Assembly: GCA_040753015.1 (NCBI GenBank)
Contig: JBFMHM010000001.1
Coordinates: 8,193-72,192, forward strand
DNA length: 64,000 nt
Direction: 5' to 3'
Source: Candidatus Omnitrophota bacterium
GTDB lineage: Bacteria; Omnitrophota; Gorgyraeia; Gygaellales; JBFMHM01
Within the stretch, counting starts at the first letter, position 1. Each line of letters starts with the position of its first letter. The notes below the pieces were generated by a model. It made no database searches, had not been told where the DNA came from, and saw only the letters and a program-made list of their open reading frames with translations. The position numbers and the translations under genes were made by a program. This document shows positions 3,594-45,207 of the stretch, piece by piece.

Positions 3594-5600
3594 ATGAATG
3601 AATTTAAAAAAGAAATAGATAAAATTAAACAAGAATTACTAAAATTGACAGCTCGCCTAAATAATTTAGAGGCAACATTTGGCGTTAAGGAACCCGAGAA
3701 ATCACCCTCAAAAACACAGCCTGAAGCTAAAATATTAGCCCCTAAAATAATCCTAGAAGAAGAAGTAGCAACTCACCCAAAAATCGACATTGAGCTAAAA
3801 TTTGGTAAATTCTGGTTAAATAAGATTGGCATTGTAATATTCGCTATGGGAATAGCTTTTCTTATTACCTATACATTCAAATATTTTGGCCCATTTATAA
3901 AGATTCTATTTGGCTATTTAATTGGCGGAGCTTTGTTTTATTTTGGAACAAAAATAGAAAAAAATGAGAAGTTTAAAAACTATGGACACGTGCTTTTAGG
4001 TGGTGGATGGGCTATCATATACTTCACTACTTATGCTATGCATCATTTTGAGGCTTCGCGCATACTAACTAGTAAATTAATTGATATATTTTTTCTTACG
4101 CTTGTAGCATTAGGGATCATTAAATATTCACTAAAATATAAATCCGAAGAACTTACATCAATAACCCTAATTATAGGATATATAACAGCCATATTAGGAA
4201 ATATTGGTTATTTCACACTCGTAAATTCTCTAATTTTAGCAATTATCGCAATAATATTAGTTTATAAATTTAAATGGACGCGAACAATATTTCTAGGAAT
4301 AATCTCGACTTATTTGTTACACGTAATATGGCTACAAGATAAAGTAAATTATTCTTTTATACTTAATGCTGGATTTTTATGTATTTATTGGCTTTTATTT
4401 ACTACGAGTATCCATTTGATTAAATCCAACGAAAAAAATATATTTAATAAATTGGCTATTGCTAACTTTATGAATTTCATTCTTTTCTTTTTTATGTTTT
4501 ATCCTAAATTCATTAAGTTTCATCCAATAAATAAGTTTGATTTTATATTTGCATTAGGCATAATTTACAGCTCCATAGCTTTAATTGTAAGAAAAACTAA
4601 TAACACTAAATTATTTTCAAGTAATATAATTATAGCTGTATCGCTTTTAACATTAGCAATACCATTAAAATTCATGCCGTTTCACGCTAGAATAATTTGG
4701 TCTATAGAATTACCTTTTCTATTGTTATGTGGCATAATATTCAATCTACCTATATTTAGATATTTAGCTTTTGCTTTAATGTTCTTTAATCTATTCGATT
4801 TCTTAAACCAAACATCTTATATTGGTTTTCTTTCATTTTTAGGCTTTGTTTCAACAGCATTATGCTACCTTGTACATAAGAATCAGAGAAACAAGCAGGC
4901 TTTAAGCTTTTCTGAAGTCAAGATAGTACAAAATTTCTACTCAGCTGTATCTATAATTTATCTGATCTTTTTAAGCTGCAAAAACCTTCCACAAGAATGG
5001 GCTACTCTTGGTTTAACTGTAGAATACCTATTTATATTTATATGCGGATACATGTTATTAGACAAATATCTACGGATATATTCACTTATACTACTTGCAA
5101 ACTTAATAATACCACTACTCGAATTCCATGAGCTCTATATGAATAACCCAAAAATTATGTTTTTTCTGTTAAATTCCAATGTACTGACAACAATTCTTGC
5201 AATCATATCCACAAGTATTATCTATTTCTTATATAAACGATTAAATAAACGCGCACTCCTAGATTCTAGAGAGCAGTGGCTGGTAAATAGTGTATTTTTT
5301 ACCGCATTACTTTTATTAATTATCTTGATTTTTCGGTTTGTCATGGATTCGTGGATATCTGTTGTTCTGGGTTTATCAGGTATAATGGCGATTTCAATCG
5401 GGCTTATCTTTAAAGATAAGCTATTTAGACTTGGCGGATTTATTATTTTTTTCATTACATTAACAAGAATTGCCTTTTTTGACTTGGCTGGATTAACCAT
5501 AATCTACAAAATTATTAGTTTTATTATACTTGGCGTAATATTTTTAGCAGTTTCTTTTATTTATACAAAATATAATATTCCAAAATTGGAGAAAAAATGA
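3594..5600 (+). CDS. polytopic integral membrane protein with N-terminal coiled-coil (DUF2339-like architecture)
   Basis: The ORF track starts this gene at 3564, overlapping the upstream gene, but an ATG at 3594 (MNEFKKEIDKIKQELLKLTARLNNLEA) is the more plausible start. More than 15 hydrophobic helices follow. Confidence 0.5.
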   Translation: MNEFKKEIDKIKQELLKLTARLNNLEATFGVKEPEKSPSKTQPEAKILAPKIILEEEVATHPKIDIELKFGKFWLNKIGIVIFAMGIAFLITYTFKYFGPFIKILFGYLIGGALFYFGTKIEKNEKFKNYGHVLLGGGWAIIYFTTYAMHHFEASRILTSKLIDIFFLTLVALGIIKYSLKYKSEELTSITLIIGYITAILGNIGYFTLVNSLILAIIAIILVYKFKWTRTIFLGIISTYLLHVIWLQDKVNYSFILNAGFLCIYWLLFTTSIHLIKSNEKNIFNKLAIANFMNFILFFFMFYPKFIKFHPINKFDFIFALGIIYSSIALIVRKTNNTKLFSSNIIIAVSLLTLAIPLKFMPFHARIIWSIELPFLLLCGIIFNLPIFRYLAFALMFFNLFDFLNQTSYIGFLSFLGFVSTALCYLVHKNQRNKQALSFSEVKIVQNFYSAVSIIYLIFLSCKNLPQEWATLGLTVEYLFIFICGYMLLDKYLRIYSLILLANLIIPLLEFHELYMNNPKIMFFLLNSNVLTTILAIISTSIIYFLYKRLNKRALLDSREQWLVNSVFFTALLLLIILIFRFVMDSWISVVLGLSGIMAISIGLIFKDKLFRLGGFIIFFITLTRIAFFDLAGLTIIYKIISFIILGVIFLAVSFIYTKYNIPKLEKK

Positions 5601-34297: not shown

Positions 34298-37200
34298 ATG
34301 ATTAAACGTATATTTATCTTATTATTGGTAGGGATTTTTTGTTTTAACCACTTATGTTATGGTTTTCAAAACATAAGTGCCTCGAAGCGCGTAACACTTT
34401 CGGGGCCAACATTATTAGGCATTGATTTAAATGGTAGAGACGCGCTGCAGTGCGTCTCTACGGGTATCCAATTCAATCTAAACATCCCCAAAGGCACTAT
34501 TCTTAATCTAGACCAACGTAACAACCTTAAAACCAACATAAACTACTTTCTAACAGCTCTAACCATACAAGACTCTGAATTCTGGGTTAACCTAAACCCA
34601 AACCAGCCTAACAGGCTTACAGGAACAAATATTGCCTACACAGACATGGGCAAGCATCTATTACTCCTAGACCTAAAGCTTAAGAAAGACACAACCTTTG
34701 CATTGTTTCCCGGATTATCACAAGGAGCCACAACATACTGGGAACGTGTGTTTGCTAAAGCTAAAGCTTTAGCAAAATCAAATATCAAATATCAAAAATC
34801 AAATATACAAACTAAAAATCAAAAAGAAGAACAAAACCGAAGAACCGAAGAACTGACGAACAGTCGAACTGTCTCTATCCCCACAACCTTCCGTGTCTGG
34901 ATAGTTCCAGACAAGGCAGAAGTATACGAAGATGGCAAAGGTAGCTGTGTAATAACCAAATCAACATTGAAAGTGTTACTGGAAAGTGAGTATCTACAAC
35001 TCCCCCAGACCCCCTCTTTACCAAAGAGGGGGATAAAGGGGGAGTTTGATAACAACCAAGAGTTACAATCCTACTGTGAATCGCAGCTAAAAGAACTAAT
35101 ACTTCCTAACCTAACACATAAAGTAAACCATGATCCAAGCTACGAGCCACTAAGACAGATATACAATGCAATTATTCTTGCGAAGTGGTTTAAAGCCAAT
35201 GCTTTAAACAGCAAGAATAATAATTACCAATTACCAAATCCCAATGTCAAATCAATTACTAATGACCAATCAACCAATAAAAACCAATTCGAACAGATCA
35301 TTAATTCTAATAATTTAAAGGGGTTAATATCTAAGGATCCAATAACAAAAGAACAAATCTTTGCTGCCTACTTAGACTCAGTAAAACAAGGCGAATACCA
35401 TCTTACCAAGACTAACTACAATGAAGAGCTGAAGGCTAATATTAGGAGAAGTTATGTGAGCGGGGGAGCAGAGTTTACAGCTATAGCTTTAACAGTTGAC
35501 CCAACTGCGACAAGCAAGGCAGGTGCACTTGCAACAGATAATTTAGGAGCAGCAGTTACATTAACAGATAGTCAAAATCAATCAATAAATGTAGCTATAA
35601 AAACTGATTTTGATAGTTCTAACGCAATGGATGTAACTAGTCGAGTAGAGCCGCGATTAATCGCGTCTCTACAAGGTGATATTAAAATATTTGTTTGTCC
35701 ATCTTTAAGTCAATTTGATAACCAAGATAATTTTTCTCTCATTGCTCACGCAGGCAGGGGTGGAGTAAGGGTAGTAGATGGAGTTACCCATAAGCATACC
35801 TTGCGTCAAATATATCTATCCCCTAAACAATTTGAGCTTGTGCAAGGCTTAACCCAAGAAGCCAAAGAACAATTCTGGAAACATGAAATAGCACATCTTG
35901 AACATCCGGAGATGAGCGAAGAAGAGGTGCAAGCGGTTGCGCCGACGGATAAGGTAAGGGAAGAACTCATTGATCCTGATTTAAGAAAATTACTAGAAGC
36001 AGAAAAGGTTCTAAGCATAGAAGAAATAGATCTTTCCGAAGCCTACGTATATGCTGCTGATGACATTGCAGCTATTGCTCAAAACAAACCCGAGCTTGCC
36101 GATAAAGCTCTTGCCGTCTTAGAAAACATCCTAATAAAAACCATCCTAATCCTAAACAGAGAAGAATTAGATCTTTGCGAAGCCTACGTATATGCTGCTA
36201 ATGCCATTGCAGTTATTGCTCAAAACAAACCCGAGCTTATCCGTGAAAGTACCCTCGCTGTTTTAAAAAACATCTTAAACAGCGAAAAATTACATACTTC
36301 CGCCTACGTATATGCTGCTAATGCCATTGCAGCTTACTATGCAAAAGTAAATAAACCTATCCCAGCGGCAGCGCTAAAGGCCCTTCGTCTTCGCTACATA
36401 CGGTTTACCGATCGTGGCATTAGTTTTCATGATGCATCTGCCTTTGCCGAAGGTTTACTTAAAACAGCTTCTCCAGTAACTCTTAAGCCTTTACCCGAGG
36501 CTCTGCCCAAGAAAGAAGCTATAGATTTAAACAGTATCCCTAAACAAGATAACCTCGATGATTTGTTAAAAGATTATACTTTTGTCCGCGCTCAAGGAAG
36601 AACATTAATCTACAAACACAAAACAACAGGTAAATTCTTAGCCTTAAAGCTACTTAAAAAAGATGAAAGTCCAGCAGAACTTACTCATGAAAGCAATATG
36701 TTCGAATACTTTAACAAACATAGGCAAACATTGGGATTACAATCAATCTTTCCTATGTCTATGGTTCTTAACTCTGAGGGTGATAAAGTGTTAAGTGTGG
36801 TTAATTTGCCTCGAGATGCATTAGCTGATTTATCTGTTTCGGTTGAAAAAACAAAGCAATGCTATACAGTTATGGCATATACTACAACTAGCTTTGATTA
36901 CTTTACGTATCTTGATGATCCTGTTTTAAGTAAAGAAGAATTTAATCAAGCAACTGAAAAATCTGTACATGACTTATTTGCTCTCGCAAGTTACGGAATT
37001 ATTCATACTGCATTACTAAGTATTTTTCATACCGTAGAGCAGGATAAAGATAGGCAAGATGCGGGTAAGTATATTTGGATGACAAGTATAATTAGAAAGT
37101 TGACTACAGGTACAGGTAGACTAGAAAATTGGTTAATTGCTGCAAAATACCCTAATTTAAGGCGATCCGGCTTAGCTGATCTAGCTGACATAACTACTCT

Positions 37201-40200
37201 TGATGAATTAATAACTGATCCAAACCATCTTGGAAGCATTCATTTATCCGAAGCAAGAGAATTCTATAATAATCAAGAAGTATTAAAACGCGTATTTCTT
37301 GCAAATTACATAGGAGATTATCTATTGACCTTTGCTTTAATTACAGGTTCGCGATTACATAAACGCAATGAATTTAATTGGCAAGACCCAGAACAATTAG
37401 CCAAGTTTATGCAGGAATTATTTACTCAAGCATTTACTGTAAGTAGATCCCAAGAACAAGCCAATACTGTAGCTAAAGCAATTGACTGGGCTCGTCTTGC
37501 CAGACAAATGAGCTATTTTATGTCAGGGGCGTATGTAGCTGATTTTAGCCCAAAAAACCCACACAGAAATATTCCAGTTGGAATGTTTGAAGGCGAAGAA
37601 ATTTGCTCACTAGGTTCTTTTGACGAAAGTCTTTGGTCAGAAGTTTTTGGTTGGACAAGCCTTGTCCAAGATAATCCTGAAGATAATCCATCAGCGCTTG
37701 GCCCCTTTAACGGCCCTTTTCCATTAACTGAACTGGTTAAAGCATTGTATGTTTATGCAAGCTTACTTGCTACAGATACACAGACTACAGAAGAACAAAC
37801 TGCTGACACCACCATTGCCTCAACAGGCGAGAAGGGTGCAACGCGAGCTGAACACGAGGTATATCATAAACAAGGTAAATTTGAAGAAGTAATTACTGAT
37901 ATTGCTAAAAAAATTGAAGCAGAAAAAAGAGCTGATGGTAAATATGACTTACGCGCTAAAGTTCAAGAAAAAGGTGGTAGTATTCAAAAAATATTTAGCC
38001 AATTACGCATTGAAAATGATGGAATACTTGTAATTATTGACATTCGTTTTCATAGAGACCATGCCGGCAGAAACGAATTCGCGGTCTATGCCCGAAGTGA
38101 AGCTAAAGCTCAACACGAGCTAAGTGAATTACGCGACTGGCGAGATTTTGCAATTGAACAAAACATTGCCACTTTAGAAGATATACAACAAGGCTTACTT
38201 GGAACTAAACTAAGAGAATGGATGAATGATGGAGCCATTCAAGATGCAGAACGCGCCCATCGCAAAAGCTTAATTGAAGAAAAAAGCAAAGCCTTTCATA
38301 GAAAAGCACTTGAGATTGAGGTAAAATCTGATTTCGAAGATATCGAAGAGCCAGGTTACAAAGCTGTTACATTTATCCTTCCAGAAGCGACAGATGGCCA
38401 AGGTGATTTTATGGATTTACTTTCTACGGCAAGGGTATTTCAAAAATCAAATCCTACTAAAAAAGTAAGAATAGCGCTAGAAAGAGCCTCTGCTTATAAA
38501 AAACTTACTAAATTGTTTCCTGATTTTGATCCAGAAAAAATTAGCAATACAGTAGATGACATAGTAGTAATTAATGCTGAACAAGACCCAACTTTTATAG
38601 ATAGCCTTTTGTGTAATAAAGTAAGTATTATTCTTTTATCAGCAGATAAATCACCACCGGCTTTAGGTTTATCAGCAGTTAATATTTATCTGGAAGAACC
38701 TGGTGCTTCAAAAAGAATATATCTGCCGACTAATTTAAAACGCGGAGAAGTTTATAAAGATAAACAAGGGCGCTTACATATTGTTTATACCACTGGTTTT
38801 AGCACAGATTCTTTAGGTATGGTTATAGATAAAACTTTAAAACAAAAGATGCAAACTGCAGGTAACTCAAAGCAAAACCTATTACATTCTTTAGCTCAAG
38901 AAAAACCCGGCCTTCAATTACCAGCTGATACCATAGATTCCAAATGGGGATTTGTTTATTATAATAGTTCTCATGTTGAAGTTGTTTATAGTAGTTTTGG
39001 ATATTTTTCTTTTTTATATCAAGCGTTAAAAAATGGGAATATTGATAAAGGACAAAAAATTACAATATTTGACTTTAGCGATACCGTTGATTCCTGTGAT
39101 GGAGTGCGTAACTATGATGCTTATAAAGCTTTTACCCATATTTTTCCTGACGGCAAGATAATAGTGGGAGAAAAATTTCCTAATGTTAGAGTTGTTCATG
39201 TCTCTATGGCATCACATAATTTATTCTTGAGATTTATGTATATGGCAGAGCTGCCTATATTAGTTACAGGTACAAGAAGTTTAACAGAGGCAATCGAATT
39301 AGGCAAACCCTTTGTTTATGACTTAATGAATTGGAAAGTCGGCCTTGTGCAGGGCATGGTTGAGCAGGCAATTCGTCATATGCCTTTGGACCAAGCATTA
39401 ATAATCGCGGCTTGTTTAAATGGCTACCCTGCAATAGACGAACAAGAAAAATATACGAGATTACTTACATTATACAGACAATTAAGAACGCAAATCCCAC
39501 TTGTAAAGTCACCCGATGATATAGGTTTAGTGCTAAATCAATTTGCAGAAAATAATGGGTTAGATAGGAATAAATTTGGCTATGCATTTTGGGAACCTCT
39601 TAAAAGTGTTACCGGCCCCGAAATAACTGAAGAAGAATTAGTTGCATTAAAAATTTGTTGGATTATGCTAGGTGGTTTAAGAAGCATTCACTTAAAACAT
39701 AGTCCCAGGATTTTATATGATTCTATTTATCAAGAAGCATTTAGAGCTTTGACAGAAGTATTAGCAAATTTACCTGCGTTAGAGGATAATTTAGCGCAGC
39801 AAATAACTACATTAGTTGATGCTTATAACCAAGATGAGCAAGAGGCACTTAGAATTTTACGAACAAATGTTGATGCCGCTGTTGGCCAAAAAGAAGACGA
39901 AATTGACTTTATTATCTCAAGTGATGGAGGCGTAGCTGATAAAGATGTTTCGTTGCTTCCTCCCAAGTACGACGGAGAGCGATTTAGCCCGCAGACTATC
40001 TATGATTTTGGCGCAGGTTTATCTCCTCTAGAAAGACAGCACTTAAGGCGAAGCTTGGTTAGGTTAACGGCTCAACTAAGAAATAAGGATGTAGCCGTGC
40101 GAACTCAAGCAGTAACTGCTTTGATAAATCTTTTCGCCAATGAATTTGGGCTTTTTTCAAGAGGTATTCTTCAACAGGCATATCAGAATCAAGAACAATT

Positions 40201-43200
40201 AACTAATCTTTTTATACTTATGCGCCCTCTTTTAGAAAATACTCTCTTAAATGGAAGCGAAGCAGATGATGCCTATCAAAACTTAGCTAATCAACTTGCT
40301 AATCCAACCACTGGTTCTAGTCAAGAAACTATCCTAAGGACTGCCAATAACCTTGGTTGGAATTTAATCTTTATTAATGATAGGCCAATATTTGTTTTAA
40401 CTGATGAAGCGCATAATTACGCCACATCAACTGCTTCAGATGAGGTGCGCCTTGTTAATCTTTTGCCAGAAGGAATAGTTTTATCAAATGCACGTCCAGT
40501 ACAGGCAAGTGAGGTTACGCAACCTGATGTTAGCGCACCAGTAGTTTCGCAGCCAGTGCAATTACCACAGCCACAGCAGCCAACTACTGCTTTAGTTGTA
40601 CCTAACCAAGTACAAGGAGTACTTGTTAAACCGCGTACAATTGCCGGAGTAATTGCTAAGTTTAAGCCTATAAATTATCAACCAACACTAAACAGGCCGC
40701 TTATTCAAAGAATTGCAATACTTATTAACGAAGGCGATTATAACCAAGCAGCTACGCTTATCCAAAACAACCATACAAGAGCACAAGCGCAGGCACTCTT
40801 AACCGAGCTTTTAATTGCACACCCAGGTCCGCAAACATTCGAGTTACTAGCTTATTTAGATATAGGTCTAGCAACAGATAGTTTTATGCAGGCATTTGCT
40901 ACAACTAATGGCGAACTAAATTTAGAACGCATAAACAATATTATATTTATGCTCTCACTCATACAAAGAGACAGAATTTATCTTTGGCAAGCGCAGTCGG
41001 ATTTACGTTCCGCTGGAACGCTTAGGGAGAGCCTGCCATTTTCTTGTTTTATTCTTGCCAGAATGAGCCAAGAGAGGGAATATCAGCCATTTGTTGCAAG
41101 AATGAGAAGGCTTATTGATGATATTGTGCCACTTGGAACAGTTGCTGGGTTAAACCGCATAGAAACATTACTTAAAATTGTTAATGATTTAGCACCAGAA
41201 GCTCTAGTTGCACAAGAACAAACATATTCCTTCGCAAGAAGCATTGATGAAATTGATGAAATTGTTGCTAGCTTAAATAGCGCAGGAGATGATTTAAGCG
41301 CTGTTTCAGATTATTGTATTCTAGGTCGTTCGCCAACCAATGTACTTCGTGCGGTTAAAAAATATGCAGCAGCCAAGATTCTTCCCTGGCGAGCAGTTTT
41401 AGTTAGATTACTTTCAGCGCAATCACCAGAAGCTATTGCAACATTTATTGCTGTGCTTGACCAGCAGCAAACAGCTTGGTATCGAAATGATTTAGGCGAT
41501 GAATTAGAAAGAGTAGAGTTTTTCTCTACCTTGCTTGCAGAAATTGACAGAGAACTTGCCATAAACACTATAGACGTGCTTGTTACTGACCAAATACTTT
41601 ATCATCAAGACTCACGCAGATTAGCAGAGCGTATTCTTCTTGGCCCGGCAATTGAAGCAATAGATGCAATGGTTGCAATACACACTGAACTTTGCAAAAG
41701 AGATAGCCGTTATAATACAGAGTTTGAATTCCAGCTAACCGGTGTGTTACTTGCTGAAGACTTGACTAAAGGCCAAAGACAGCAAGCAGTTAAAAGATGT
41801 GCTCAAATCATCGAAACTACTGATGATAATTGGCATAAACTAAAAGCTGACTTCCGTGTACTTATTGCAATGCGTACCGACTCAGGTCAAGCCCGCAAAG
41901 ATGCAATCGCTGAGTTGGGGAGGTTAGGCACACCCGATGCTGTGGATGTGTTGCTTGGGCTACTAATACAAAGGAGCATACCTAGATATAGTTTACTAAA
42001 AGCATTGGCTAGGGGTTTAACTGTGGACCGAAAAACAGATGAGGATAAAATTTTTCAAGACGGTCTTAAAACAATTCATTCAGGTAGATATATTAAAGAA
42101 GCTATAAATGCGCTCTCTCAGTTAGCACGAACAGATTTGGATAGTTTTACAGCGCCTCAAGTATTTTTTATTAAATGGCTTGGTATGTATCTGAATTATC
42201 AGAATATAAATGGCGCTTATCTTCCAAATGATTCGGATAGGGTTGGCATTGTTAATATTTATATTATTCTAGGATTCCGCGGGCATAGTTATGCAGTATC
42301 AAAGTTTATTCAAGAGTGTGAGGGATATGATAAACTTCCTGATCTTCCACGAGATGATTTAAGGGGATGGTTTAATCCAGAAATCGAACAATGGGTTGTT
42401 TGGCGAAGAGATTTAATTGAAAAATTAGCTGATCCTAGATTAGATCAAGCTAATTGGCAATTTGAACAAAACCAATTTTTTCTTCTTCTAGAAGCAATTG
42501 GCGTGCCAAAAGAAGTTTCACGTAATATACGTCAACTATGTATTAGTGAAGATAAAAATGAAACAATAGCTGCAATCCAAGCCCTTGGCGAAAGTAAGCA
42601 TTCCGCTTCTGTTGAATTGCTCATCGATTGTTGTTTACCAATTGAACAACGTTCTATGTCTATTACTCACTTGAAATATAGAGATAAAGATGGCCGAAGA
42701 GGTCTTGACAACGATATTTGTCAAGCCGCGATTATAGCATTAGGTAAAATCGCTGACCCTCGCGCAGTTGAGCCTTTGATTGAATGTTTGAAGGATACGA
42801 ACAAATATGTTCGTCGCAACGCTGTCGAAGCTCTTGCTAAAATTGGCATGCCGGCATTGCCTGCATTAGAAGCAACTTTACGCCGTCCAGAGTATAATAA
42901 AGTTATTGCTGAAATACAAAGAATAATTGATCGTATTCGCGCTAAAAATCCTAGCATAACCGAGCATCAATTTTTCGCTCCGGTTTTATCGTCCGCTTTA
43001 AAACAAGAACTTATCGCTAAATTAAATGGCTCGGATTTATTAGATGCCCCTATTGCTGAACGGACAAAGCAAGTAATTAGAATATTAACTAGCGATAAAT
43101 ATTATGATGAGCAATCATTTAACTTGCTCATTGCCGCTTTAAATGAAATTAAAGCTGGAATACGCATTAACTTAGAAGGCCTGCATATTGCCGGTGATTA

Positions 43201-43405
43201 TAAAGAAATATTAGAGCTAGTGCTTAAGCCGCTTACCGATGACCTTGCCGCGGCTAATGCAAGCGATCCAAATACAACATTAGAAGGAATGGAAGTATTA
43301 GCCAAAGCACAATCTGTATCGTCTAAAGGGCAAGGCGCAAAAACCGCGCCTGTTACAACCGGCGGCATTGACCTATCGCAAATACAGATTACGATGATTG
43401 GATAA
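34298..43405 (+). CDS. giant secreted multidomain protein (3035 aa) with HEAT/PBS-lyase-type repeats
   Basis: An uninterrupted 9.1-kb ORF with an N-terminal signal peptide ([22 protein letters not shown]). HEAT_2/PBS-type repeats lie near aa 570-680 ([20 protein letters not shown] x3). More lie in the C-terminal part ([40 protein letters not shown]). A Pro/Gln-rich linker is present. I could not assign the central domains. Confidence 0.8.
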   Translation: [3035 protein letters not shown]

Positions 43406-44301: not shown

Positions 44302-44802
44302 ATGAAAAACATAAAAAATAATTTTATTATAGCGATATGTTTGTATTTGATTGATGTGTTTATACTGAACCAAGGAATAATTGCTATTTTTGTAATTTTT
44401 ATAATAATTTTTTTCCTTTTTCCAAGATTATTATTTACTATATTCAAAAAAGACAAAATGATAACTCAAGAAAGAGCAATTATTCTTCTTATATACATTT
44501 TAATGGTTATTGGTATAATCACTTCCAATAAACTAAATAATAAAATTGCGTTTATGCGTGCCAAAAAAATAATTCAGGCATGCGAAGAGTATAAATCAAA
44601 ATATCAAACATATCCAAACAAGCTATATGATCTTGTTCCAGAGTTTATAACTAAAATTCCTGTGGCTAAGCTTACGTTACAATTTAATAAATTCTACTAT
44701 ATTTCAAGTAATAATATGCATGCTATTTATTTCGTAAGCCGCCCGCCTTTTGGCAGGCCTATTTATAATCTAGAAAAAGGTTCTTGGGGATATCTAGACT
44801 AA
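44302..44802 (+). CDS. hypothetical small membrane protein
   Basis: Two or three transmembrane helices. No motifs. Confidence 0.4.
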   Translation: MKNIKNNFIIAICLYLIDVFILNQGIIAIFVIFIIIFFLFPRLLFTIFKKDKMITQERAIILLIYILMVIGIITSNKLNNKIAFMRAKKIIQACEEYKSKYQTYPNKLYDLVPEFITKIPVAKLTLQFNKFYYISSNNMHAIYFVSRPPFGRPIYNLEKGSWGYLD

Positions 44803-44818
44803 ATCGAATATCTAAAAC

Positions 44819-44847
44819 TTGAAAATCATTAAAAAATGTGGTATATT
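44819..44847 (+). promoter_or_regulatory. strong sigma70-type promoter TTGAAA-17-TATATT with extended -10 TG
   Basis: The -35 is at 44819-44824, the spacer is 17 nt, TG lies at -15/-14 and the -10 is at 44842-44847. It would drive the ORF-free region downstream. Confidence 0.5.
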
Positions 44848-44854
44848 TATATTA

Positions 44855-45151
44855 GAAGCAGGGCCGATAAAGGCAAACCACGAGAAATCGTGGGACATCA
44901 TAATGTAACAGTAAACGTCAATTAAACATTATGATCTCGAAATATAGCTTGTAAGTAAAAAATTAAGCTATAATCGAGGCAAAGCCGCAAGCCTAAATTG
45001 TTTAAGGAAGCAAGTCAGGCTTAAACAACAAGGTGGTTGGGTTGCCAAAGAGCGCCAGAACAGATCGAGGTGAGGAGAAGCAAAAATAGCGCCTCCTTAT
45101 CGGCCATTATTTATGATATAATAATCCCGAACATTAATTCGGGATTTTTTT
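44855..45151 (+). ncRNA. candidate structured non-coding RNA of about 295 nt, class unknown
   Basis: No ORF of 60 aa or more exists in 400 bp. The 5' GGCCGATAAAGG pairs with the 3' CCTCCTTATCGGCC. Internal hairpins include CCACGA-gaaa-TCGTGG, ATCATAATGT...ACATTATGAT, TATAGCTT...AAGCTATA and TTGTTTAAG-13nt-CTTAAACAA. The 3' end is a strong intrinsic terminator ATCCCGAA-cattaa-TTCGGGAT plus T7 (45124-45151). Confidence 0.45.
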
Positions 45152-45207
45152 ATTTATGCCACATTTTGGCATAAATAACCCACCAACGGGTTAGTGGCGG
45201 GTAAACA

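Follow-up and report, generated by a model that had tools for sequence, protein, structure and literature searches.

Gene content and predicted transcription unit of the locus

Omnitrophota are ultra-small, putatively predatory or host-dependent bacteria. In the 64,000-nt stretch of a Candidatus Omnitrophota genome studied here (contig JBFMHM010000001.1; the whole stretch is termed the window, and all coordinates are given in its numbering), a 166-aa open reading frame (ORF) at 44302-44802 is followed by a gene-free interval and then by uvrB and coaX. By prediction, this interval is a gene for a structured RNA of ~290 nt with its own promoter and terminator. The core of the RNA is very probably an aptamer of the GEMM-I family (RF01051), the class I riboswitches of cyclic di-GMP (c-di-GMP), which has been expanded by an insertion of two hairpins, HpA and HpB, and is closed by a long-range helix, P0. 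The features are collected in Table 1.

The promoter matches the sigma-70-like consensus at 10 of 12 positions and carries, in addition, the TG of an extended -10 element; transcription would start near 44854-44856. An equivalent TTGAAA/extended -10 promoter lies 5' of the RNA in every member read of the subfamily to which the window RNA belongs. With regard to very high expression, such a near-consensus promoter is only suggestive. At the other end of the unit, the terminator T2 consists of AAUCCCGAAC-AUUA-AUUCGGGAUU and a U-run; its homologue in the relatives is AAUCCCAACAGAAAUGUUGGGAU(5-9), with two compensatory stem changes in the alignment. The 300 nt at 44852-45151 fold with a minimum free energy (MFE) of -94.4 kcal/mol, compared with -58.3 +/- 4.3 kcal/mol for 200 dinucleotide shuffles (z = -8.45), none of which folds as stably, and the MFE structure holds a long-range closing helix and five internal hairpins. 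In GC content, the 3' two-thirds of the locus (0.39-0.42) exceed the upstream ORF (0.20-0.33) but not uvrB (0.34-0.40).

An ORF scan of 44803-45207 found no ORF of 46 aa or more, the longest having at most 45 aa. Peptide-level matches of the small ORFs to the relatives extend over only 11-21 aa, mostly 11-16 aa, and all of them come from two plus-strand ORFs in different frames that cross the 5' part of the RNA with its invariant core nucleotides. At the loci of the relatives, the strand, the frame and the length of the longest ORF all vary. A hidden small protein was ruled out, as no internal ORF is conserved in the relatives.

These results agree closely with an initial annotation made from the letters of the window alone, which had proposed the same TTGAAA-17-TG-TATATT promoter, a terminator with seven Ts near 45124-45151, the lack of any ORF of at least 60 aa before uvrB, and a self-complementary sequence with long-range closing pairing and at least four hairpins. 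The folding check that it recommended came out clearly on its side, and no short conserved protein-coding ORF, which it had named as refuting, lies inside the unit. Its statement that the locus is richer in GC than its surroundings holds for the upstream ORF but not for uvrB.

Table 1. Features of the RNA gene in window coordinates (A1, structure-blind MAFFT alignment of 13 distinct subfamily sequences including that of the window)
Feature	Position	Strand	Description	Basis
Promoter	44819-44847	+	-35 TTGAAA 44819-44824; 17-nt spacer; TGg 44839-41; -10 TATATT 44842-44847	
P0 5' strand	44862-44871	+	GGCCGAUAAA; pairs with 45096-45105	MFE fold
GEMM hairpin 1	44872-44896	+		Rfam alignment; definition in PMC1950547
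HpA	44897-44935	+	10-bp stem AUCAUAAUGU/ACAUUAUGAU; 19-nt loop	Insert folds
HpB	44936-44978	+	Base CUCGA...UCGAG; inner stem AUAGCUU/AAGCUAU	Insert folds
2-bp stem 3' side and AAA linker	44979-44983	+		Rfam alignment; columns invariant in A1
GEMM hairpin 2 (P3 of crystal structures)	44983-45043	+		Rfam alignment, A1, covariation
Core-closing GCC	45044-45046	+	Two Cs invariant in A1; base before is G or A	Rfam alignment; A1
Alternative local hairpin	45069-45101	+	GGUGAGGAG 45069-77 with CUCCUUAUC 45093-101; excludes P0	
P0 3' strand	45092-45105	+	CCUCCUUAUCGGCC	MFE fold, covariation analysis
Terminator T2	45123-45151	+	9-bp stem 45123-45146, then T7	Terminator scan

The GEMM-I core and the two-hairpin insertion

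In a permissive Rfam scan, the full length of RF01051 (model positions 1-87) aligned to 44862-45049 with a score of 32.9 bits and an E value of 1.2e-4 for the locus, or 0.013 for the whole window. The only large departures from the model are a 101-nt stretch opposite 19 model positions and a 21-nt extension. The score remains under the gathering score of 35 bits because of the penalties for insertions, namely the 82-nt two-hairpin insert at 44897-44978 and also the extended hairpin 2, and the window RNA is for this reason classed as a GEMM-I variant rather than as a plain member. Three homologues exceed the gathering score (L033, 37.0 bits; L050, 36.5 bits; L039, 37.0 bits).

Support for the structure was drawn from MAFFT alignments, RNAalifold and explicit pair counts. 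The subfamily shares a layout of promoter, closing helix P0 (GCCGAUAAA with UUUAUCGGC), expanded aptamer, long hairpin 2 with a near-canonical CCUACG/UAUGG receptor, short linker and trailing terminator AAUCCCAACAGAAAUGUUGGGAU(n). In A1, standard pairs make up 97.2% of the cells in 58 pairs, and 22 pairs are changed on both sides, compared with 5.5 +/- 1.6 after column shuffling and 3-6 when the partners were slid by 1-3 columns. Because the window sequence is AT-rich and the most divergent of A1, it supplies many of the compensatory changes, which fall in HpA, HpB, hairpin 1, hairpin 2 and T2.

The sequence hallmarks of the family are in place. GEMM hairpin 1 of the window reads GGCAAA-CCACGA-GAAA-UCGUGG-GAC, which has the layout of a 2-bp stem, a 3-nt AAA internal loop, a 6-bp stem and a GAAA tetraloop given in the definition of the motif (PMC1950547). 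In the window the 6-bp stem is CCACGA/UCGUGG, four of whose six pairs covary, with the tetraloop at 44884-87 and GAC after the stem, while the 2-bp stem joins GC at 44873-74, after which the internal loop follows, to GC at 44979-80. The latter begins the segment GC-AAA-GCC (44979-44986), whose AAA linker is invariant in all 13 subfamily members; an AAA linker between the hairpins is a defining feature of GEMM (PMC1950547). Hairpin 2 combines a receptor-like CCUAAA (44987-92)/CAAGG (45029-33) with an extended distal stem (UUGUUUAAG/CUUAAACAA), and 7 of its 18 pairs are changed on both sides. In GEMM-I aptamers, a GAAA loop on hairpin 1 goes with a tetraloop receptor in hairpin 2; the receptor-like motif of the window resembles but departs from the canonical 11-nt receptor, to which CCUACG...UAUGG of the relatives comes near.

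Nucleotides G44872, A44981 and C45045 align to conserved RF01051 positions and are invariant in A1; we take them to be the equivalents of the ligand contacts G20, A47 and C92 of the Vibrio cholerae Vc2 aptamer in its crystal-structure numbering. Furthermore, the window RNA has G at the position that separates c-di-GMP binders from cyclic GMP-AMP (c-GAMP) binders. Since the ligand-contact equivalents, the GAAA tetraloop, the receptor-like motif and the AAA linker are conserved, the RNA would be expected to bind c-di-GMP.

No match to transfer-messenger RNA (tmRNA), RNase P RNA, signal recognition particle (SRP) RNA or 6S RNA was obtained at the locus at E values up to 10 in the permissive Rfam scan, and ARAGORN reported nothing at the locus; these four identities were excluded on this basis. 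The initial annotation was right in seeing no tmRNA, RNase P or SRP motifs and mistaken in seeing no riboswitch hallmark, its reading having covered the B12 box alone. The 6S-like RNA that it held possible gave way to the full-length RF01051 match. What it called a candidate novel non-coding RNA stands as a structured, conserved and covarying non-coding unit, not as a novel class, since the unit is based on GEMM-I; of the checks that it listed, the comparison of relatives yielded the covariation described above, and the Rfam scan yielded the GEMM-I hit, albeit one below the gathering score.

The 82-nt insert sits between GGGAC and GCAAAGCC, on the 3' side of the internal loop of hairpin 1, and HpB is directly flanked by HpA and GCAAAGCC. 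In the modelled fold, HpA and HpB widen hairpin 1 to a four-way junction. All 26 distinct inserts that were compared form two abutting helices that fill the insert exactly; the uninterrupted terminal base pairs number 12.8 on average, compared with 5.7 in shuffled inserts (p <= 0.04 for each insert), and each stem position shows several pair types. In HpA, seven of the eight aligned pairs are changed on both sides in the family. No other copy of the insert was found within the 64-kb window, and its interpretation as a repeat or mobile element was set aside on these grounds. GEMM has been listed as a motif with variable-length stems and without modular stems (Weinberg et al., 2007; PMC1950547). 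A full-text literature search returned no paper naming both c-di-GMP riboswitches and Omnitrophota. As far as checked, the four-way-junction form of GEMM-I is undescribed so far, although unremarked examples may sit in published alignments.

Closing helix, terminators and relatives of the RNA

In the MFE fold, the long-range pairing joins GGCCGATAAAGG (44862-44873) to CCTCCTTATCGGCC (45092-45105). P0 of the window has nine Watson-Crick pairs and an innermost A-C pair; AGG at 44871-73 can also pair with CCU at 45092-94, in competition with the use of those bases in the aptamer core. P0 is found in all 13 members with 10-12 bp and 99% of its cells paired, and its 3' strand is located 45 nt past the aptamer. 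The local hairpin that excludes P0 likewise has an equivalent in 13 of 13 members. It is formed with a decoy that resembles the P0 5' strand and reads GAUGAAGG, GUAAAGGCA, AUAAGGG or AAAAGG in the relatives; in the window it is GGUGAGGAG, which pairs with CUCCUUAUC, so that decoy and partner strand change in concert. P0 is favoured over the local hairpin by 5-12 kcal/mol in every member, and the local hairpin would therefore be a kinetic alternative.

The local hairpin of most relatives starts within the GCCGA that ends the aptamer, and a U-run trails it. This element, T1, was called by the terminator scanner in L061 (10156-10182) and in L033 (6405-6422); in L061, T2 was also called, 17 nt past T1. 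T2 does not overlap the aptamer, and the transcript end that it sets lies ~20-45 nt beyond T1. No U-run follows the local hairpin of the window, and of the two serial rho-independent terminators that follow the aptamer in leaders such as Bc1 (see below) only T2 is present; the window has apparently lost the T1 U-run and kept T2 alone. Inspection by eye for antiterminator pairing between T2 and the aptamer gave only 4-5 bp, which was judged meaningless.

The expanded aptamer was searched for in one genome per GTDB species with the pattern AAGGCAAACC-N10-18-GGGAC-N65-95-GCAAAGCC. The scan returned 46 loci, of which ~16 have a real insertion; by name, these are Omnitrophota (~13), Planctomycetales (two) and PVC group (one). 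Many of the others are ordinary tandem aptamers in Bipolaricaulota and 'Thermotogae' metagenome-assembled genomes (MAGs) or single aptamers with a chance GCAAAGCC. L004 and L041 were left out of the insertion set as chance matches, and L040 is ambiguous as an insertion case. A narrower pattern applied to a metagenome collection added 14 loci, all of the insertion type. Viral contigs gave zero matches to the pattern, and a phage origin was rejected accordingly.

Some carriers, which are termed cis-type members, have the appearance of ordinary riboswitches: an ORF lies downstream of the expanded aptamer, and the terminator between the two overlaps the aptamer. The downstream genes assigned by Pfam encode a T2SSE/MshEN ATPase (L036), a prepilin (L039), a response regulator with HisKA (L003) and a GAF protein (L051); the downstream ORFs of L010 and L020 are pilin-like as judged by N-terminal sequence only, that of L010 having no Pfam hit. 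Such genes are typical of c-di-GMP control, and because cis-type members precede them, both the assignment of the ligand and the competence of the expanded fold are supported.

Other arrangements were noted among these loci. L014 (1223-1460) and L051 (2484-2700) repeat, downstream of the expanded aptamer, the 3' half of hairpin 2 without its 5' half (…GAUAGCCGGGUUGCCG and …GACAGCCAAGCUGCCG, respectively), an arrangement suggestive of competition between two alternative 3' halves for a single 5' half. The Bipolaricaulota/'Thermotogae' MAG loci (L006, L007, L009, L011, L013, L019, L023 and others) have a highly conserved arrangement of two tandem GEMM-I aptamers, a conserved segment AAUGGUGGCCGAGCCGCUAGAUGCGCUC, GGAGGUG and an ORF that starts MRMNKL... 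and is signal-peptide-like; that phylum appears to possess a conserved regulon of tandem c-di-GMP riboswitches. L036, an Omnitrophica WOR_2 genome, has at 5395-5452 a motif of the nhaA-I (Na+) riboswitch (47.2 bits; gathering score 37 bits).

The RNA of the window is not tied to uvrB. The UvrB encoded in the window is identical to a protein from a 417-kb contig of a Candidatus Omnitrophota MAG, and the next best UvrB has only 75% identity. The closest available relatives have UvrB at 74-75% identity, and in L001 and L002, which are among the nearest relatives with contigs, nadC is followed after a gap of 1-3 nt by uvrB and then by coaX, with no GEMM core between nadC and uvrB. Because nadC abuts uvrB there, the 166-aa ORF and the RNA are regarded as a lineage-specific insertion of ~900 bp in a nadC-uvrB-coaX operon. 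The syntenic homologues beside uvrB for which the initial annotation had looked did not materialize: synteny was rejected, homologous RNAs adjoin other genes, and the position upstream of uvrB, being without comparative support, is an accident of this genome. Three unrelated neighbourhoods are known for the subfamily: between a lipoprotein gene and a GH1 glycosidase gene in the main clade, before a tRNA_bind gene in L033, and between the 166-aa ORF and uvrB in the window.

The 166-aa ORF itself is very AT-rich and has hydrophobic N-terminal segments; it is annotated by NCBI as a hypothetical protein and has no Pfam domain. It has no more than four homologues, at 36-46% identity, whose operons encode other hypothetical proteins and have no GEMM core in their vicinity, and a link between this ORF and the RNA was rejected. 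Directly upstream of nadC, a 3035-aa ORF occupies 34298-43405; large genes are a reported hallmark of Omnitrophota (bioRxiv 2023.11.21.568195).

Several elements lie between the RNA and the next gene. In the window, a perfect 12-bp inverted repeat, TTATTTATGCCA-CATT/T-TGGCATAAATAA, stands directly 3' of the terminator within 45150-45207 and is followed by a second hairpin, CCACCAACGGGTTAGTGG, just 5' of the uvrB start; in addition, a direct repeat, TTATTTATG, flanks the T2 hairpin (45108-16 and 45151-59). These repeats could be an operator, extra terminators or an insertion scar. The main clade and L033 have a promoter-like site between the RNA terminator and the next ORF. In the main clade (L052, L055, L061, L049 and others), an extended -10 element, TGGTATAAT, lies ~7 nt before the ATG of the GH1 glycosidase gene, with a -35-like hexamer inside the 3' arm of T2. 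This spacing suggests that the GH1 mRNA is leaderless, in which case a read-through transcript presumably could not mimic it. In L033 (6471-6532), TTGCAA-17-TATAAT between the RNA and the tRNA_bind gene is followed directly by a hairpin, ACCCCTTATAAAAGGGGT, and a T-run, which may be a further tiny transcription unit or an attenuator.

Proposed function, competing explanations and known systems

The locus probably represents an orphan unit, an autonomously transcribed RNA that would bind c-di-GMP through its GEMM-I core. In the proposed mechanism, P0 would join the 5' end of the ~290-nt RNA to the segment downstream of the aptamer, and the P0 3' strand would alternatively pair with the nearby decoy copy of the P0 5' strand to give the local hairpin. 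In the relatives, this hairpin and its U-run would act as an apparently ligand-sensitive terminator, T1, whereas T2, independent of the aptamer, would end the transcript; the window would keep only the latter. The product would be a free c-di-GMP-binding molecule, such as a buffer or sponge or a ligand-gated partner of RNA or protein, and not a classical leader. Free-standing action is proposed because no ORF is reached before the transcript ends and because the genes that adjoin the homologues are unrelated; both this action and the P0/local-hairpin switch are put forward as what the sequences imply. That the unit is autonomous rather than a leader is favoured by a little over even chances. 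The fuller proposal, that Omnitrophota carry a dedicated, strongly transcribed, free-standing c-di-GMP-sensing RNA with a four-way junction that acts in trans, either as a second-messenger buffer or through a ligand-gated RNA or protein partner, is tentative and would be right in appreciably fewer than half of such cases.

A number of points weigh against an autonomous c-di-GMP-binding RNA. No family reaches its Rfam gathering score at the locus, and the insertion adjoins nucleotides engaged in tertiary contacts in canonical aptamers, a position from which it could alter or abolish binding. P0 is nearly without covariation, because its sequence is almost invariant, and a single, fairly close clade supplies 11 of the 13 subfamily members. 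Furthermore, the next gene lies on the strand of the RNA in all three contexts, the consensus scan found no sigma-70-like promoter between T2 and uvrB, and uvrB-coaX may depend on read-through of the RNA unit. The last group of observations is also what speaks for the main rival, cis control by leaky read-through, in which the RNA is a classical riboswitch leader and c-di-GMP sets the read-through of T2 into uvrB-coaX (into the GH1 glycosidase gene in the relatives). The ORF and the RNA split an ancestral nadC-uvrB-coaX operon, so uvrB needs a source of transcription, and in the relatives the overlap of the T1 hairpin with the 3'-terminal GCCGA of the aptamer is the usual layout of an ON switch (PMC1950547). 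However, T2 combines a strong hairpin with a U-run and showed no convincing alternative pairing with the aptamer on inspection by eye, the window has no T1 U-run, and the downstream genes vary with the context and are not typical c-di-GMP targets. In the relatives, moreover, the downstream gene has its own extended -10 promoter near the ATG, and in Bc1 a second terminator abolishes the ligand response (PMC11218506). Control in cis is accordingly considered unlikely, although it is the strongest competitor.

The same two pairings could serve a ligand-gated small RNA acting in trans, in which c-di-GMP would shift the balance between P0 and the local hairpin and make the purine-rich decoy GAGGUGAGGAG or the 3' tail accessible to an RNA or protein target. 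All 13 members retain both of the pairings, which exclude each other, the decoy co-changes with its partner strand, and the RNA has its own promoter and terminator; the decoy sequence, however, differs between the window and the relatives, and P0 is favoured by 5-12 kcal/mol even without ligand, which leaves this explanation improbable. That the aptamer is a decayed remnant, broken by the 82-nt insertion and with neither ligand binding nor function, would fit the score under the gathering threshold, the position of the insertion within the most conserved hairpin and the precedent of conserved aptamers that do not respond to ligand (PMC11218506). Nevertheless, 26 distinct sequences have the insertion as a conserved module with covariation, those from named genomes being all from Omnitrophota, Planctomycetales or the PVC group; the insert is not repeated in the window, the core nucleotides are invariant despite a genome region of 20-40% GC, and aptamers of the same type occupy ordinary riboswitch positions before pilus and signalling genes. 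A remnant is very improbable in the light of these observations. Hardly credible, finally, is an unrelated new class of non-coding RNA, 6S-like or other, that resembles GEMM-I by chance: the failure to pass any Rfam gathering threshold would be as expected, but the RF01051 match is full length with E = 1.2e-4, relatives pass the RF01051 threshold, all of the GEMM sequence hallmarks are there, and tmRNA, RNase P, SRP and 6S gave no match up to an E value of 10.

The expanded form of GEMM-I exists in named genomes of Omnitrophota and the PVC superphylum, and the counts of c-di-GMP riboswitches in these phyla are probably underestimates because the Rfam threshold recovers this form only patchily. 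The two-hairpin module offers a natural test of the extent to which the GEMM-I junction tolerates remodelling while the binding pocket is kept, and HpA/HpB, if the proposed reading is true, would constitute a novel functional domain, for instance one for protein binding or ligand tuning. As Omnitrophota are uncultivated, an RNA linked to c-di-GMP with a near-consensus promoter would also offer a handle for metatranscriptomics of lifestyle switching.

Compared with GEMM-I aptamers such as V. cholerae Vc2 (RF01051), the window RNA has the same GGCAAA, 6-bp stem with GAAA loop, GGGAC, GC-AAA-GCC, CCUAAA receptor-like motif and closing motif GGGUUGCC, in the same layout of 2-bp and 6-bp stems, AAA internal loop and AAA linker (PMC1950547). 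It differs in the 82-nt two-hairpin module with its predicted four-way junction, in the extended hairpin 2, in the 10-12 bp closing helix with a 3' strand 45 nt past the aptamer, and in that no ORF appears to be directly controlled. In Bc1, a GEMM-I riboswitch of Bacillus thuringiensis (Bacillus cereus group), c-di-GMP opens T1, and T2 persists and masks the response (PMC11218506). The relatives of the window RNA share with Bc1 the two intrinsic terminators tens of nucleotides apart after the aptamer; Bc1, however, is a 5' leader of protein genes with a canonical aptamer, and the T1-equivalent hairpin of the window has no U-run.

The closest functional precedent, by analogy, would be merRNA of Bdellovibrio bacteriovorus, an orphan, massively expressed c-di-GMP riboswitch RNA of 445 nt that has been proposed to store or sponge c-di-GMP and was reported to be restricted to Bdellovibrio (PMC3627812). 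As in merRNA, the c-di-GMP-I aptamer of the window would stand in a discrete non-coding transcript that is bounded by a promoter and a terminator of its own and lacks a conserved ORF downstream, a unit that in the window is known from sequence signals. The two differ in length (445 nt and ~290 nt), massive expression is a measured property of merRNA, and no HpA/HpB module has been described there. The host of merRNA is a predator, and Omnitrophota have also been proposed to be predatory (bioRxiv 2023.11.21.568195), a parallel that is suggestive only. The idea of free-standing riboswitch aptamers has until now rested mainly on merRNA; the present subfamily adds comparative evidence, read from promoter, terminator and alignment, and, if the proposed reading is true, would show the merRNA principle at work a second time, independently, in a predatory lineage.

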